From: a virus
Lineage: Duplodnaviria > Heunggongvirae > Uroviricota > Caudoviricetes
Strand: one strand, 5' to 3'
DNA length: 5,815 nt
Virus record (IMG/VR): IMGVR_UViG_2740892211_000008
How positions within the stretch are numbered: the stretch's first letter is position 1; every line of letters starts with the position of its first letter. Positions 535-5,642 of this stretch are shown one piece after another. Under the pieces are notes generated by a model. The model worked only from the letters and a program-made list of their open reading frames with translations, was not told the DNA's origin and did not search any database. Position numbers and translations under genes: made by a program.

Positions 535-556
535 TATTAGCCTCGTTGGTTAGCTA

Positions 557-775
557 TTAACGTGGGTATGTAATCATTCTGGCAATGCTTAATGCCGCTG
601 CTTTTTCCAGATTGGCGATACCCTGCTCCAGAGCGGACAGATTTTCAGCCTGCTTAGCCCTGGCTTCATTGGCCCATTTCAGATCCTGCGCTGCATTAAT
701 TTTCTGGCGCATCCACTCATAAAGTTCATCATCGGTATAGTCTGGCGCGATGATGACGGGTTCTCGTTTCTGCAT
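557..775 (-). CDS. ydfC: YdfC-like small prophage protein (72 aa)
   Basis: 72-codon ORF with GAGGA 7-8 nt upstream of the ATG. It is the third small gene downstream of the DicA-like repressor, matching the remembered Qin order dicA-ydfA-ydfB-ydfC and the remembered YdfC length (72 aa). The symbol rests on synteny and length, not on a sequence alignment. Confidence 0.6.
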   Translation of the reverse strand: MQKREPVIIAPDYTDDELYEWMRQKINAAQDLKWANEARAKQAENLSALEQGIANLEKAAALSIARMITYPR

Positions 776-804
776 ACTGATTCCTCGCGGTGCTGCTTCG
801 CTTA

Positions 805-933
805 TCAGCCGTTAGATTTTGCCGAGCTGGAAAGCGCCTGTTTAAACTCACTGAAGCTGAGAGCTTCTTCGCCTTCGGCAAGGCCTTCGAAGTATTCTTC
901 GTAAGCCTTTTCCATGATTGTGTCGAAATCCAT
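805..933 (-). CDS. ydfB: YdfB-like small acidic protein (42 aa); absent from the ORF track because it is short
   Basis: Minus-strand translation gives MDFDTIMEKAYEEYFEGLAEGEEALSFSEFKQALSSSAKSNG then stop. AGGTGA sits 5-6 nt upstream, and the ATG is 1 nt after the upstream gene's TGA (tight coupling). Length and position match remembered Qin YdfB (42 aa). Confidence 0.55.
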   Translation of the reverse strand: MDFDTIMEKAYEEYFEGLAEGEEALSFSEFKQALSSSAKSNG

Positions 934-934
934 A

Positions 935-1090
935 TCACTCACCTGAGTTTCTTTCCAGCCAGCGACGGGCACCATTTTCGGTTTTAAACGTTTTGCTTTT
1001 GGTATACGTCATCGCGGTGAATGTGCCGTCCTGGTTGGGAAACACGCCGTACACCAGAGATTCGTTGTTGCCAAGACCGATAGTATCCAT
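935..1090 (-). CDS. ydfA: YdfA-like small prophage protein (51 aa)
   Basis: Start chosen at the internal ATG at 1090 (MDTIGLGNNESLVYGVFPNQDGTFTAMTYTKSKTFKTENGARRWLERNSGE), which has GAGGT 5 nt upstream. The 69-aa version in the ORF track has no RBS. Length and position match remembered Qin YdfA (51 aa). Confidence 0.6.
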   Translation of the reverse strand: MDTIGLGNNESLVYGVFPNQDGTFTAMTYTKSKTFKTENGARRWLERNSGE

Positions 1091-1159
1091 GTTGACCTCA
1101 TTTCCCCTTAACGCCGGAGTAGCGGAACTGTTTGCTGAGAACACCGTGCGGTGTCTTGA

Positions 1160-1225
1160 TGAGTGAAATTTAGAATAACCTAAGTCATATGGTCAAGATT
1201 TTTATGTAGAAAAACCTAAGTTTTT
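1160..1225 (-). promoter_or_regulatory. Candidate leftward promoter and operator region upstream of the ydfA-like operon
   Basis: Minus strand has TTGACC (complement of 1191-1196) and a weak -10-like hexamer around 1168-1174. The 10-mer GACTTAGGTT (complement of 1177-1186) lies in the spacer, and a second AACCTAAG copy is at 1213-1220. The same 10-mer recurs in the repressor/cro intergenic region. Confidence 0.4.
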
Positions 1226-1291
1226 TGGTGTAAAAAACACAAGTGTTTGAAAGTTTGTGCTTTTTATTACAGGGTGTGGAGAAAAAAGGGG

Positions 1292-1699
1292 TTATTTGTT
1301 TGCGCTTCTTTTGCGAGCTTTAAGTAGTTCTTCAAAAAGTTTGTTGAAATTTTCAACTCGAGCACGCATCTCTGACAACAGGGCCTTTTGCTCTGAGTCA
1401 GGCAGTGCGTCGAACAGTTGAAGTAACTCTTTTTGATCTTCTGTCAGAATGGCTGGCTGATTATTCGGGATCGGTTCGCCTGGTTGTTTATCTTCATCCC
1501 CAAAAAGAAGCCAAGTCGGTGAGCACTGAAGCGCTTGGCTCAGTGCGAATAATCTTTTCCCCGCCGGCTGTGTTTCATCTCTTTCCCATTGAGAAATTGT
1601 TACGTGAGCCACTTTGACCAGCTTACCTAATGCGGCCTGAGACAGTTTTAATTTTTTACGCCTATGTAAGAGGCGAGCACCGAAGGTTTCGTTTTTCAT
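1292..1699 (-). CDS. dicA: DicA-like XRE-family HTH prophage repressor (135 aa, cI functional analogue)
   Basis: N-terminal HTH (KLSQAALGKLVKVAHVTISQWE) and a C-terminal segment (LFALSQALQCSPTWLLFGDEDKQPG ... MRARVENFNKLFEELLKARKR) that closely matches my memory of E. coli Qin DicA. Same 135-aa length. Divergent from a Cro-like gene. No Shine-Dalgarno upstream of the ATG. Confidence 0.8.
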   Translation of the reverse strand: MKNETFGARLLHRRKKLKLSQAALGKLVKVAHVTISQWERDETQPAGKRLFALSQALQCSPTWLLFGDEDKQPGEPIPNNQPAILTEDQKELLQLFDALPDSEQKALLSEMRARVENFNKLFEELLKARKRSANK

Positions 1700-1775
1700 A
1701 TTAGGGAATTCTAATTTTTCTTGACTTAGGTTTCTCTACGATCTGGTTTCCTTAGGAAAATCTAAGGAGCTCGAT
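1700..1775. promoter_or_regulatory. Divergent promoter/operator region between the repressor and the Cro-like gene
   Basis: 76-bp intergenic region. Contains TTGACT (1721-1726) overlapping GACTTAGGTT (1723-1732), plus CTTAGG at 1751-1756 and CTAAGG at 1762-1767. AAGGAG RBS sits before the cro-like ATG. A TAGAAT-like -10 on the minus strand (complement of 1708-1713) sits about 7 nt from the repressor ATG. Confidence 0.5.
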
Positions 1776-2003
1776 ATGTTGAAAATTGATGCTATAGCGT
1801 TTTTTGGCAGCAAAACAAAGCTTGCCAATGCCGCAGGAGTTAGGTTGGCAAGCATTGCTGCATGGGGGGAACTGGTTCCTGAAGGTCGCGCGATGCGCCT
1901 GCAAGAGGCATCCGGCGGGGAACTTCAGTACGACCCCAAAGTTTATGACGAATATCGTAAGGCAAAGCGGGCGGGGCGGTTGAACAATGAAAATCACCCC
2001 TGA
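1776..2003 (+). CDS. dicC: Cro/DicC-like small DNA-binding regulator (75 aa; YdaS-like)
   Basis: 75-aa ORF divergent from the repressor with AAGGAG 6-7 nt upstream. Size and position match the cro/dicC slot of lambdoid immunity regions. The dicC assignment is by position and size only. Confidence 0.65.
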   Translation: MLKIDAIAFFGSKTKLANAAGVRLASIAAWGELVPEGRAMRLQEASGGELQYDPKVYDEYRKAKRAGRLNNENHP

Positions 2004-2538
2004 ACAGGTTTGTGAGGCTCTGGATGCCTGGGTATGCCGACCAGGAATGACACAGGAGCAGGCGACGATATTAATCACGGAAGCATTCTGGGCTCTGAAA
2101 GAACGCCCGAACATCGATGTTCAACGCGTCACGTTTGATGATGGCGCGGTTGATCAACGGGCGCTGGGCGTTAACCGGGTGAAGATATTCGAACGCTGGA
2201 AATCTATCGACACCAGGGATAAGCGGGAAAAATTCACGGCGCTGATTCCGGCAATTATGGCGGCTATCCGGATCAGTGATTTCAGGTTGTATCGTGAAAT
2301 TACTGACGGAAAAAGCATTACGTACATGATCGCCGGGTTAAACAAAGAATATGGCGATGTGGTGGAGTCAGGGCTACTTTTTGCGGATCCAGCTGTTGTG
2401 GAACGTGAGACTGACGAACTTATAGAAAAAGCTATTGCTTTCAAGCGTGCGTATCGTCAGCAATACCAACATTACTTTGCAGATAAACAAATATCTGTCT
2501 GGGGTTCGTATGAGTATCGATGCGCTACGATGGGCTAA
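1987..2538 (+). CDS. YdaT-like protein (183 aa), the proposed CII functional equivalent
   Basis: Immediately downstream of and overlapping the Cro-like gene by 17 bp, which is the slot occupied by YdaT in Rac/CP-933P-type prophages. Family assignment is by position and general resemblance, not an alignment. Confidence 0.5.
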   Translation: MKITPEQVCEALDAWVCRPGMTQEQATILITEAFWALKERPNIDVQRVTFDDGAVDQRALGVNRVKIFERWKSIDTRDKREKFTALIPAIMAAIRISDFRLYREITDGKSITYMIAGLNKEYGDVVESGLLFADPAVVERETDELIEKAIAFKRAYRQQYQHYFADKQISVWGSYEYRCATMG

Positions 2539-3550
2539 AAAGGTGAAAACCGGCAGTTCATCCAGTAAGTCAGTATTGACCTGGCTTGCTGATATGTGCG
2601 GTGCCGATTTGTGTGCATACCCGTCTGTATCTGCACTGGCAGAAGTAACGGAACTGAACAAAAAGACTGTGCAGGACAGCTTACGACACCTGATGGAGAT
2701 TGGGTTAATTGTTGATACCGGTGAGAGAAAAGGCCGGACAAAACAAATTGTGGTGTACCGACTTATCGGTGTTGAAGAAAGTGTTACCGAGGATGAATAC
2801 ACCCAAAAACGGGAGTCTTTAAAGGTAGGTAAAATTGGTACTGTTAATAAAAACAGAACCGAAAACGGTTATGTTTCAGCACAAAACAGCCCCAAAAACG
2901 GAACTCTTTGCTGCATGGAAAATAACCAAAGACACCCAAATTTTCCATCAAAGACACCCAAAAACGGATCACGGAACCCAAAGGAACCCAAAGATTTAAA
3001 CCCCACACATAACGCACGCGAGAGTGCTCCGACCAGTGAGCAGGAAGTTTTGTCGTTACAGGCAGTCCCCCCTGTATTCCTGGATGGCCTGAGCGAACCC
3101 ATCGGAAAATTTCCGATGACCGATAACTGGTATCCGTCACGGGATTTTCGACGACGGGCTGCGTTGTGGGGGATGGCTTTGCCGGAGACAGAATTCACAC
3201 CTGCTGAACTTGCCGCATTCCGGGACTACTGGGCAGCGGAGGGGAAAGTGTTTACGCAGGTTCAGTGGGAGCAGAAATTCGCCCGTCACGTAAATCACGT
3301 CAGGGCGCAGGTTAAACCAGTCAGCAAGGGGGTAAACCATGCAGCAGCACCAGGTGGAACCGCATCACGGGCAGTTCAGGAAATTCGGGCAGCACGTGAG
3401 CAGTGGGAACGTGAAAACGGATTTATCAGCGACGGAAACGGCCTGGAAGCTGTGGGAGCTCATGGGGGAGGTTTATTCGAACCGCTGGACCCAGAAGAAC
3501 GGGGCCGCACCTTCGAAGCTCTGGATTGCACAGATTGGCGCGATGACTGA
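2510..3550 (+). CDS. Replication initiator, lambda O functional analogue, with N-terminal HTH/winged-helix and C-terminal DnaT-like region (346 aa from ATG 2510)
   Basis: Start placed at the internal ATG at 2510 (MSIDALRWAKKVKTGSSSSKSVLTWLADMCGADLCAYPSVSALAEVTELNKKTVQDSLRHLMEIGLIVDTG), a typical phage initiator HTH N-terminus. The C-terminal segment (TPAELAAFRDYWAAEGKVFTQVQWEQKFARHVNHVRAQ) resembles DnaT-like domains of prophage replication proteins. A low-complexity linker holds iteron-like DNA repeats. The last 212 bp overlap the P-like gene out of frame. Confidence 0.7.
   Translation: MSIDALRWAKKVKTGSSSSKSVLTWLADMCGADLCAYPSVSALAEVTELNKKTVQDSLRHLMEIGLIVDTGERKGRTKQIVVYRLIGVEESVTEDEYTQKRESLKVGKIGTVNKNRTENGYVSAQNSPKNGTLCCMENNQRHPNFPSKTPKNGSRNPKEPKDLNPTHNARESAPTSEQEVLSLQAVPPVFLDGLSEPIGKFPMTDNWYPSRDFRRRAALWGMALPETEFTPAELAAFRDYWAAEGKVFTQVQWEQKFARHVNHVRAQVKPVSKGVNHAAAPGGTASRAVQEIRAAREQWERENGFISDGNGLEAVGAHGGGLFEPLDPEERGRTFEALDCTDWRDD
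2856..2994. repeat. Iteron-like repeat cluster inside the O-like gene (putative replication origin)
   Basis: Repeated CCCAAAAACGG-type units at about 2858, 2891, 2932, 2955, 2975 and 2986 (for example GAACCGAAAACGG, CCCCAAAAACGG, ACACCCAAAAACGG, GAACCCAAAGG twice). An AT-rich stretch lies just upstream at 2821-2855. Lambda's origin is likewise iterons embedded in the O gene. Confidence 0.45.
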
Positions 3551-4004
3551 GCAGCAAATCCGGCAGGTCTGCCGCCAGTGCATGGACTGCTGCCGGGCGG
3601 GTGAAACATGGCCTCCGGACCTGGCTGAGTTTGTGGCGCTGATTTCGGAAAGCGGGGCCAATCCATTTGGTCTGACGGTGGATGCTGTGATGGAGGAGTA
3701 CCGCCGCTGGCGCAATGAGTCCTGGCGATACGACGGAAGTGATAAGTACCCGTGGTCTCAGCCTGTGCTGTATCACATTTGCCTCGAGATGCGTTCAAAG
3801 GGGATTGAACGCCAGATGACCGAAGGGGAGTTAAAACGGCTTGCAGAACGGCAGCTGACGAAATGGGCAAAGCATGTTAGCAACGGCCTGAGTGTTCCGC
3901 CTGTCCGGCGACAACTGGCAGCACCCAAACGTCCTGCGGGACCAACGCCAATTGAGTTGCTGAAACAGGAATATGAACGCCGGAAAGCGGCTGGGTTTGT
4001 CTGA
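3339..4004 (+). CDS. Lambda P-like replication protein (221 aa; helicase-loader family)
   Basis: Strong RBS AAGGGGG 9 nt upstream of ATG 3339. Segments (AMTEQQIRQVCRQ..., PDLAEFVAL, YPWSQPVLYHICLEMR, TEGELKRLAERQL) resemble the lambda P layout as I remember it (TTMEQVNAGMRVARRQ, PGQFVAWC, YPWKSNAHYWLVTNLYQNMR, TDAELRRKAADEL). Sits directly after the O-like gene as in lambda. Confidence 0.65.
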   Translation: MQQHQVEPHHGQFRKFGQHVSSGNVKTDLSATETAWKLWELMGEVYSNRWTQKNGAAPSKLWIAQIGAMTEQQIRQVCRQCMDCCRAGETWPPDLAEFVALISESGANPFGLTVDAVMEEYRRWRNESWRYDGSDKYPWSQPVLYHICLEMRSKGIERQMTEGELKRLAERQLTKWAKHVSNGLSVPPVRRQLAAPKRPAGPTPIELLKQEYERRKAAGFV

Positions 4005-4036
4005 TTTGAGAAGTAATTTTTACCGGGAGGAAATTT

Positions 4037-4783
4037 ATGGAGACTGTTTTTGACGCACTGAAAGCGATGGGAAAAGCCACGTCGGTAGAGCTGGCTGCGC
4101 GACTTGATATCAGTCGTGAAGAAGTGCTGAACGAGCTGTGGGAACTGAGAAAGGCTGGCTTCGTTGATAAAAGCGTATACACCTGGCGTGTGGCTTATAA
4201 CAACGTTCAGCAGGAACAGCCAGCGCCGGCAGAACTGTCGGAAGAAACCACCACGGCAACAGTCGCTAAAATTTCGGAGTGCGATTTAACTGCGACGGTT
4301 GAACAACGCGGACCACAAACGGCTGATGAGCTGGCTACGTTGTTCGGTACAACATCACGCAAAGTGGCTTCAACGCTGGCAATGGCAATCAGCAAAGGTC
4401 GTCTGATTCGTGTAAACCAGAACGGTAAATTTCGTTACTGCATGCCGGGCGATAAGTTACCAGCAGAGCCGAAATCCGTGCCGGTAACGGAAAATGATGG
4501 TAAAGCCTTTCCTCAGCCAGCAGGTGTTGCGTTACCAGTACAGGAAGCTGCAACACAGGAAGATATTAAAACAGAAACTGTGGCTGATATTGTGCAATCG
4601 TTGCCATCGTTTACTGAAACGCGAGCGGATGACCTGGTTTTACCATCGCTGCATATGGCAAACCGCGAATTGCGTCGGGCGAAAAGTCATGTCCAGAAGT
4701 GGGAGCGAGTCTGCGCCGCGCTGCGGGAGCTGAACAAGCACCGAGATATGGTTGCCGGGATTTGTCGGAAGTCCGGGCAATGA
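4037..4783 (+). CDS. Prophage protein with two winged-helix-like modules (248 aa), function unknown
   Basis: GGGAGG RBS 7 nt upstream of the ATG. N-terminal segment [33 protein letters not shown] and a second segment [33 protein letters not shown] both look like winged-helix recognition modules. Possibly a DUF1627-type prophage protein, but that is a recollection only. Confidence 0.6.
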
Positions 4784-4944
4784 GCGGATGGTGCAGGCCT
4801 GAAATTATGATACTAACAATGAAGGTAAAATGCATCGGCAGTCTGATTGGTCGTAGTGAGGCGGCGGTCAGGATGAAAGCCCGAGTTAAGGGAATAAGCC
4901 TGATTCTGCGGGGTAATTTTCACCAGTCAACAAAATATCCGTAG
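4780..4944 (+). CDS. Small hypothetical ORF (54 aa), possibly coupled to the upstream gene
   Basis: ATG at 4780 overlaps the upstream TGA (ATGA arrangement). Translation [54 protein letters not shown]. Weak RBS and no recognisable family. Confidence 0.3.
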
Positions 4945-4981
4945 CGCGATAACGGTCAAAAATCATGGCGCTGACACTTTT

Positions 4982-5224
4982 GTGCCACTGGAGATGACTG
5001 TACCTAAGTTCAGGGGAGAAGAACACGTCCGGTGGGATGGTCGGGCCAGATTTAAAGGGCAGGTCATGGCTCCAGCCAGTACGCTGGCAATGGAGGCTGC
5101 CTGGCTGGAAATTGATATGGGAACCACGCCACTCAGGGATTTACTGCCGGTCCAGAGAATAAATTCCTGTTACGGTTACACCACTGTGATCTTGCAAGTG
5201 CAGGAAAGTAGGTCTACACGGTAA
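4982..5224 (+). CDS. Hypothetical ORF (80 aa from GTG 4982, or shorter from ATG 4994), possibly a gene remnant
   Basis: Open frame only. No good RBS for either start and no recognisable domain. Sits where the phage module gives way to the AT-rich right arm. Confidence 0.25.
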   Translation: MPLEMTVPKFRGEEHVRWDGRARFKGQVMAPASTLAMEAAWLEIDMGTTPLRDLLPVQRINSCYGYTTVILQVQESRSTR

Positions 5225-5450
5225 CGCGAGTGCGTGTAACTTTTGATGTTATTTCCGTAGAAACACCGGACAAATTTTCGCTGGCAGGTCATGCTGAAGG
5301 TATAAATCTGCAGATTATGGACAATTACGGATATCCGGCAAGAGCCGGAAAAAGCATGCCGCCTCTAATTCTCAGTGGAAGATGGACTTGATTATACTCA
5401 TTGCATTGTCAGAAATAGTTATCCATTAAAGGCTGGCTATTCCAAACAGG

Positions 5451-5478
5451 ATGTTGATTACAAAAATGTAATCAACAT
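5451..5478. promoter_or_regulatory. Perfect 28-bp palindrome (12-bp arms, 4-bp spacer), candidate operator upstream of the secreted-protein gene
   Basis: ATGTTGATTACA-AAAA-TGTAATCAACAT; the two arms are exact reverse complements. About 165 bp upstream of ATG 5643 and just upstream of a consensus -10. Confidence 0.6.
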
Positions 5479-5504
5479 GTAAGGTTTATACTCTTCAATA
5501 TGCG

Positions 5505-5510
5505 TATAAT
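5505..5510 (+). promoter_or_regulatory. Consensus -10 hexamer TATAAT, candidate promoter for the right-end gene
   Basis: Exact TATAAT at 5505-5510 in an AT-rich leader. No good -35 at 17 bp (AGGTTT), which suggests activator dependence or an extended -10 type promoter. Predicted start about 5517. Confidence 0.3.
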
Positions 5511-5642
5511 TTTCCTTATTTTGTTAACTTTAAATAACAAGCTATGCACGAGGTAAAGTCGGATAAGTTTATCTGGATGTAATATATATTATTTGTAGTG
5601 TTTATAACTTTATTTCATGATAACCAATAAAAGGAGTTTTTT

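Follow-up and report, generated by a model that had tools for sequence, protein, structure and literature searches.

We examined a 5,815-nucleotide (nt) stretch of DNA from a virus of the Caudoviricetes (IMG/VR record IMGVR_UViG_2740892211_000008), here called the window, in which a gene for an initiator resembling lambda O (hereafter O) and a gene for a helicase loader of the lambda P family (hereafter P) overlap by 212 nt in different reading frames (Table 1). The O-like frame runs from an ATG at 2510 without a stop until the TGA at 3548–3550 (346 amino acids, aa); the P-like frame, which is +1 relative to O, is open over 3336–4004 and has its earliest ATG at 3339. A Shine-Dalgarno (SD) sequence precedes this ATG within O codons, and its predicted pairing with the 3′ end of 16S rRNA is −11.8 kcal/mol, as against −6.1, −3.1 and −6.2 kcal/mol at the later in-frame ATGs at 3462, 3543 and 3582. 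An earlier note on this DNA had described an O frame open to 3550, a strong ribosome binding site ahead of ATG 3339, a 212-nt overlap in different frames and internal ATGs at 3462 and 3543, the latter in a ATGACTGA junction with the O stop; the open reading frames (ORFs) and the pairing energies bear all of this out. It also said that lambda O and P overlap by only a few bases, and lambda O (38686–39585) and P (39582–40283) do share just 4 nt. As explanations for the long overlap it offered a genuine dual-coding arrangement, a C-terminal extension of the initiator caused by a frameshift or stop loss, or a mis-set P start.

Table 1. Coordinates of the overlap, its start signals and the other features of the window
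Feature	Position	Strand	Remarks
Predicted dual-coding overlap	3339–3550	+	212 nt; O frame 0, P frame +1
Putative Shine-Dalgarno sequence for P	3326–3333	+	AAGGGGGT, inside O codons AAG GGG GTA; 5-nt spacer to ATG 3339
O-like initiator gene	2510–3550	+	Weak HTH_36 match and DnaT-like domain; RefSeq coding sequence (CDS) WP_000020574.1 has equal bounds
Lambda-P-family helicase-loader gene, full form	3339–4004	+	221 aa from ATG 3339; identified by PF06992, hhalign and Foldseek; frame open from 3336
Part A of the overlap, O constraint dominant	3339–3425	+	O helix residues 287–302 (nt 3368–3415) over P residues 1–28
Part B of the overlap, P constraint dominant	3426–3550	+	P helices 29–54 and 60–67 over the acidic, predicted disordered O tail
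Internal ATG, Met42 of P	3462–3464	+	Inside predicted helix 29–54; RefSeq start in other genera
ATGACTGA junction, Met69 of P	3543–3550	+	RefSeq P start; overlaps O stop TGA 3548–3550
Iteron-like direct repeats in the initiator gene	2796–2992		ACACCCAAAAACGG x4, CAAAGACACCCAAA x3; repeat families D1–D3
YdaT-family gene	1987–2538		
P22-Cro-like gene	1776–2003		
cI-like repressor gene	1292–1699	−	
DUF1627 gene	4037–4783		

Comparison with lambda P indicates how much of the open P frame belongs to the loader. P matches the Pfam family PF06992 with 60.9 bits (cut-off 26; E-value 1.6e-16), its residues 56–188 lying on profile positions 28–161; because this match begins at residue 56 (nt 3504), the homology reaches upstream of the start that RefSeq annotates in Escherichia coli. 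hhalign places residues 86–195 on lambda P residues 94–204, and the 221-aa P is thus colinear with the 233-aa lambda P. The lambda P sequence in the Protein Data Bank matches at an E-value of 1.5e-6, and the best Foldseek matches are lambda P chains V, Y and Z in 9oa1, a DnaB–lambda P complex (211–214 aligned columns, probability 1.00). In the AlphaFold2 (AF2) model of P, residues 1–28 are of low confidence, with a predicted local distance difference test (pLDDT) score of 40–53 for residues 1–30; they are followed by helices at 29–54, 60–67, 71–86 and 95–104 and then by better-predicted C-terminal domains. Lambda P is composed of domain I (residues 1–29, a probably disordered ‘N-terminal lasso’), a compact domain II (about 30–119), domain III (120–192) and domain IV (PMC12661323). 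Judged from the model, the first ~28 residues of P would correspond to domain I of lambda P, and the point at which purifying selection on P sets in (see below) to the start of domain II. Translation from 3543 would begin at about lambda P residue 77, with half of domain II lost; in lambda, an in-frame deletion of P codons 9–86 abolishes both the replication function and P-lethality (PMC3640518).

A scan with the P alignment of one genome per GTDB species gave 37 loci with P identities of 42–92%, from Escherichia, Citrobacter, Enterobacter, Klebsiella, Salmonella, Pluralibacter, Kluyvera, Pectobacterium, Serratia, Rahnella, Rouxiella, Yersinia, Erwinia and other genera. At 32 of the 37, an initiator-like ORF overlaps the open P frame, by 176–575 nt; these overlapping loci, defined by an upstream initiator-like ORF of more than 150 codons, were counted as 31 unique sequences plus locus L027. 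The 31 unique loci, all from Enterobacterales, form about 17 clusters at 80% identity, and our statistics treat loci as independent, with p-values that ignore phylogeny. All 31 and L027 carry an ATG, in frame with P, 234–273 nt upstream of an invariant WPPD motif and 149–224 nt before the initiator stop. The predicted SD pairing energy at the equivalent of 3339 has a median of −10.2 kcal/mol; it reaches −9 or better in 65% and −7 or better in 87%, compared with 3.4% and 6.6% of 4,228 background ATGs in related loci. GGAGGT, or AGA/CGA GGT, stands at the SD position in all 31 unique loci. In the O frame this is usually read as GGA GGT, and loci with Arg there use AGA or CGA, so that GAGG is retained; similarly, the P ATG is written NAT Gnn, and the O residues encoded there vary among H, N, Y and D and among A, V, E and G. 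Along the stretch that holds the SD and the ATG, it is therefore the nucleotides that are conserved and not the initiator protein, and this stretch falls in a part of O (residues 269–285) that AlphaFold predicts to be disordered. The internal gene has independent, conserved start signals of its own, as is looked for in a dual-coding overlap. One further locus, L039 (Leclercia adecarboxylata NCTC13032, ~2500–3147), has a P frame open only from 2686, yet tblastn matches residues 9–221; this pattern is probably a frameshift, through a pseudogene or an assembly error.

Examination of diversity by codon position in an alignment of 20 Enterobacteriaceae loci divides the overlap into two parts. Up to about 3420 the third O position is the most variable (0.50 in the O body, and 0.43 in 3339–3421, where the other positions are at 0.28 and 0.23). 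The pattern switches to that of P at ~3430–3440, upstream of the ATGs at 3462 and 3543; over 3428–3547 diversity is 0.39, 0.15 and 0.11 at P positions 3, 1 and 2, matching the 0.50, 0.15 and 0.12 of the P-only region. O is the better conserved protein over 3356–3421, with a mean pairwise amino-acid identity of 0.68 against 0.45 for P, and P over 3428–3547, with 0.79 against 0.54 for O. Among 64 E. coli haplotypes from 83 loci, segregating sites at O codon positions 1, 2 and 3 number 2, 4 and 11 in part A and 18, 4 and 6 in part B; a scan of viral contigs, which gave near-identical E. coli copies only (96–100%), was used for within-species polymorphism and not for diversity. Because the codon-position switch, the identities and the segregating sites agree, purifying selection on P can be placed from about residue 30 onward, which is ahead of Met42 (3462) and well ahead of Met69 (3543). 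Purifying selection can thus be attributed to each of the two frames, to O in part A and to P in part B.

Part B, at least in its first half, is constrained by both frames, with P dominant; this conclusion follows from an O frame that is free of stops beyond chance, from a bias in P wobble positions and from where O proteins end. From each P protein and the codon usage nearby, an O frame without stops across part B would be expected with a mean probability of 0.23 per locus (0.43 and 0.60 for its sub-blocks), and all 31 unique loci are open. The model of off-frame stops behind these chances is calibrated outside the overlap, where the O body has 5.0 observed and 4.8 expected stops per 150 codons and the P body 7.0 observed and 7.7 expected per 132 codons; within the overlap, neither frame has a single stop in any overlapping locus examined. 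The wobble bias in P is toward acidic O residues: an invariant Lys at anchor −114 is AAG in 31 of 34 sequences (background 0.32), Ser at −132 is TCG in 18 of 22 (background 0.16), and Gln at −117 is CAG in all 18 (background 0.65); these biases are large. Among overlapping loci, the earliest initiator end never precedes an EPLDxEE(R/W) motif.

The initiator ends in a tail that is not peculiar to this virus. O matches PF17948 (DnaT) over residues 201–267 with 62.8 bits (cut-off 25; E-value 2.5e-17), where the AF2 pLDDT is 80–91, and matches PF13730 weakly; the PF04492 (Phage_rep_O) profile gave no match in the window O. The AF2 model lays O out as a winged helix-turn-helix domain (residues 1–88), a disordered linker (89–195) and the DnaT-like domain (200–267), followed by a disordered segment (269–285), an isolated helix (287–302) and a disordered acidic end (306–346). 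Full-length O homologues with 50–60% identity (328–352 aa), from Klebsiella, Enterobacter, Salmonella and Yokenella, all have this tail, and most end at the same point, with a few about 8 residues longer; initiators with unrelated bodies carry it as well. These homologues refute the proposal that a frameshift or stop loss had extended the C-terminus. Specifically, the helix motif S-x-A-x-Q-Q-[IV]-R-x-A-R-x-x-W-E-R and the acidic motif [LF]-E-P-L-D-x-E-E-[RW] recur behind bodies of the Phage_rep_O (PF04492) type (L022), the HTH_36/DnaD_N type (L023), the DUF1376 type (L025 and L026, and L005 by RefSeq annotation) and the DnaT type (the window, L029 and L037), and behind several bodies with no Pfam match. 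E. coli proteins with T5orf172/DUF1376 or ‘replisome organizer’ N-termini have this C-terminal half as well, at 85–90% identity. By these comparisons, no fewer than four different initiator bodies carry the same cassette of tail plus P. When the 85-aa O tail was used by itself in a word-index protein search, it matched only E. coli fragments; an exhaustive phmmer search with it, over 1.84 billion representatives, gave 31 matches. Those of ~317–360 aa have the tail at or near the C-terminus; the others are mostly short fragments, apart from a few long multi-stretch proteins whose matches are probably due to low complexity.

The motif A-W-x-L-W lies upstream of Met42 in P and is conserved in all lineages. 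Two orphan P genes without an overlapping initiator (L032 and L041) encode W-x-L-W and start 13–30 residues upstream of it; because these genes retain the motif, it is a feature of P and not a by-product of the O frame. The orphans, at 2492–3118 in L032 and 2474–3043 in L041, are in two Erwinia genomes beside housekeeping-looking genes, with no initiator upstream; judged from the ORF translations, the neighbours are a TtcA-like ORF and a PTS-transporter-like ORF. These Erwinia genes may be domesticated or relic loaders.

From this evidence we infer that ATG 3339 is the start used in vivo, and that translation of P from it creates a true 212-nt out-of-frame overlap with O; we place the probability of this reading at roughly 0.8. 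The comparative data support an overlap that is genuine, ancient and family-wide, which is the first of the options that the earlier note had listed. Several observations weigh against such a reading. No constraint on the P amino-acid sequence is detectable in part A, that is, in the first ~28 residues, and with a chance averaging 0.70 per locus that the P frame is open there, its openness is only weakly improbable and was not relied upon as evidence. The AF2 models have a mean pLDDT of 56 for O (low confidence) and 72 for P (moderate confidence), and RefSeq annotates shorter forms of P. Because the P signal in part A is weak, the case for 3339 rests on the conserved SD and ATG and on the need for some start upstream of ~3430. 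If P began at Met42 (ATG 3462), the overlap would shrink to 89 nt and the upstream P frame would be untranslated or would give a minor isoform; we regard this as unlikely. Met42 is conserved in 33 of 34 unique sequences, P forms of ~180 aa are common in databases, and some loci have a moderate SD before it, down to −9.3 kcal/mol. However, that SD is weak and variable overall (−1.5 to −9.3), Met42 is Leu in L025 and L027, and both P-frame selection and the A-W-x-L-W motif begin ~30 nt farther upstream; moreover, a start at Met42 would halve the predicted helix 29–54, and the orphan P genes start upstream of it. A start at Met69 (ATG 3543), coupled to O through ATGACTGA and with the 204 nt upstream open by chance, is very improbable, even though RefSeq CDS WP_000139453.1 begins there, an ATGA(C/G)TGA junction is conserved within Enterobacteriaceae and the junction resembles the 4-nt one of lambda O and P. 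Its SD is very weak (−3.1), the Pfam match and P-frame selection both extend upstream of it, and its product would lack half of domain II, within the region whose deletion inactivates lambda P (PMC3640518). The earlier note had proposed that O homologues of the same full length and C-terminus, together with a P start at 3543, would make this a normal arrangement; the O homologues are indeed of that kind, but the start at 3543 is an annotation choice, one that the homologues contradict because 10 distant loci have L, F or C in place of this Met (L023, L029–L031, L033, L035, L037, L038, L040 and L042). Likewise, the idea of a mis-set P start fails for 3339 and holds for the short database annotations, because P-frame selection, the conserved SD and ATG, and colinearity with lambda P all lie upstream of the short starts.

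Translation from 3339 might also be real and the overlap nonetheless incidental, the O tail beyond the helix being functionless read-through. O residues 306–346 are predicted to be disordered, O evolves fast in part B (identity 0.54, against 0.79 for P), and in the last ~50 nt the P wobble diversity (0.57) equals that of the P-only region (0.60). Against this stand the O frame that is open in all 31 unique loci, the strong preference of P codons for Glu or Asp in O and the absence of any locus in which O ends before EPLDxEE(R/W), which together make a functionless tail rather improbable. A frameshift, stop loss or sequencing error peculiar to this strain has nothing in its favour except the unusual length of the overlap, and its probability is negligible: the segment is 100% identical in NC_013353.1, and the arrangement is shared by 906 E. 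coli genomes (at least 80% coverage) and at least 30 species representatives. A programmed frameshift producing an O–P fusion was considered as well; the database ‘fusion’ proteins P0079 and P0107, which have initiator sequence and P in a single frame, do not look like evidence for it and may be real variants or assembly errors, and no search for a conserved slippery site was made. P0079 (333 aa, Logan) looks like an internal deletion that fused a DUF1376 body to P at residue ~105, and P0107 (385 aa, ENA) looks like a fusion of the O helix to P domain II with an indel or read-through into the next gene.

If P is translated from ATG 3339, we predict the following division of labour along the overlap. 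Ribosomes translating O would continue to the TGA at 3548, and separate ribosomes would initiate at ATG 3339 on an SD spelled by O codons, producing the 221-aa P. The first ~90 nt would encode the conserved amphipathic helix of the O tail and, in the other frame, a sequence-tolerant and probably disordered P N-terminus; over the last ~120 nt, the opening helices of P domain II would be read in one frame and the acidic disordered O tail in the other, with synonymous codon choice in P keeping that tail stop-free and acidic. With the O tail and the 5′ end of P sharing one stretch of DNA, the tail and the loader gene would be inherited as a unit, a cassette that recombination would have joined to several unrelated origin-binding bodies. 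The C-terminal part of lambda O is the part that deals with P, and by analogy with this domain we infer that the O tail may recruit P–DnaB. More tentatively, and in our estimate with odds clearly below even, the arrangement could form a linkage lock, in which the 5′ end of P carries, in the other frame, the initiator adaptor (helix and acidic tail) that recruits P itself; the O tail and P domains I and II might bind each other or DnaB. With such a lock, a new origin-binding body would acquire a matched loader through a single recombination event upstream of the tail.

The body of the initiator gene may contain the origin as well. The iteron-like direct repeats (Table 1) lie in the linker of O that AF2 predicts to be disordered (residues 89–195), where they encode a repeated P-K-N-G peptide, and by analogy with ori-lambda inside gene O they are a candidate replication origin. 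A 10-nt inverted repeat between 2909–2918 and the P start was rejected as probable chance, as the context of the P start differs in other loci.

These features place the module beside lambda O–P, with specific differences. As in lambda, an initiator gene is followed by a PF06992 loader gene in an early-right operon, the P proteins are of similar length (221 and 233 aa) and colinear, and iteron-like repeats lie inside the initiator gene. Unlike lambda, with its 4-nt overlap, the window has a 212-nt out-of-frame overlap; its initiator has HTH_36 and DnaT-like domains whereas lambda O is of the Phage_rep_O type; and its initiator helix and acidic tail share DNA with the N-terminus of P. In operon layout and flanking genes (cro-like/YdaS, the YdaT family and DUF1627/YdaW), the region resembles the ydaS-ydaT-ydaU-ydaV-ydaW operon of the K-12 Rac prophage; there, however, the loader is YdaV, an ATPase of the DnaC type, and ydaU, whose product has no such tail, ends 6 nt before ydaV without overlapping it. 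PhiX174 A/B/K and D/E, lambda Rz/Rz1 and MS2 L are the classical examples of long phage overlaps read out of frame. As in these, a single piece of DNA here encodes two proteins in different frames, and the internal gene is equipped with an SD and a start codon of its own; however, the classical cases are mostly small embedded genes, while here the 3′ end of an initiator overlaps the 5′ end of its functional partner, with constraint divided along the overlap. Within lambda itself, an O′ read-through product is described (Yates et al. 1977, as cited in PMC3640518) in which the initiator is extended into the N-terminal region of P in the other frame. That product needs UGA read-through and is minor, whereas the O extension in the window is a normal, conserved ORF. 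We found no description of the present overlap in the literature searched, including a survey of Stx-phage replication regions that mentions neither ‘overlap’ nor P (PMC8044961). The component families are known and the module is lambda O–P-like; what appears to be new is the long, conserved and divided overlap and the portable cassette of tail plus loader.

The treatment of P in databases follows from its position. Annotation pipelines steer clear of long same-strand overlaps in bacterial and phage genomes, which tend to be dismissed as errors of annotation; because of this, P is annotated with at least four starts. RefSeq/PGAP gives for E. coli O at 2510–3550 and P at 3543–4004 (153 aa, WP_000139453.1) with the ATGACTGA junction; LC567818 begins P after the O stop, at the equivalent of 3582 (140 aa); RefSeq entries in Citrobacter, Klebsiella, Salmonella, Brenneria and Pectobacterium start at the equivalent of Met42 (~180 aa); and GenBank, ENA and Logan gene calls often have 215–223 aa. 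One P gene thus carries four annotated start codons (3339, 3462, 3543 and 3582, for products of 221–223, ~180, 153 and 140 aa), varying by pipeline and genus. A coupled ATGA-type junction is not general in the family, as Met69 is missing from the 10 loci named above and a start there removes half of domain II; most likely, the RefSeq form that avoids the overlap cuts off the P N-terminus, ~68 residues of it in E. coli. Expressing, modelling or classifying these loaders from the short annotations would mean working with the wrong protein, and the gene is present in ~2000 of 5426 complete E. coli genomes, including O157, O103, O111 and O145 prophages of enterohaemorrhagic E. coli. Within the overlap, mutations can also be designed to abolish the product of one frame without changing that of the other, and the arrangement would offer a simple account of how mosaic phages can swap origin-binding domains yet keep initiator and loader compatible.

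By its gene content (cro, ydaT-like, O-like, P, DUF1627), the wider region is recognizable as the early-right operon of a Rac-like/PPompW-like prophage. Positions 2400–4100 of the window are 100% identical to NC_013353.1 (E. coli O103:H2 strain 12009); of 5426 complete E. coli genomes, 906 have related copies at 80% coverage or more and 2085 have partial matches. Scans gave no Rfam match in the window and no promoter-like or terminator-like site between O and P. Two further same-strand overlaps, both annotated by RefSeq, occur in the operon, one of 17 nt between the cro-like and ydaT-like genes (1987–2003) and one of 29 nt between the ydaT-like and O-like genes (2510–2538). Downstream of the DUF1627 gene, at 4780–5583, the annotation of NC_013353.1 lists a hypothetical protein of 54 aa and a fimbrial-protein pseudogene that is frameshifted and contains an internal stop, which is cargo decay in a prophage remnant. 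Over 537–5735 the window is 99.56% identical to NC_013353.1, and 82–536 is different DNA. Its termini (1–81 and 5735–5815) form an exact 81-nt inverted repeat that matches an IS1 end, an assignment based on IS1A/IS1B transposase features in thousands of plasmids. The right copy disrupts paa, an adhesin gene (ATG 5642) that NC_013353.1 has in intact form, and the window looks like a whole short-read contig flanked by IS1 copies.

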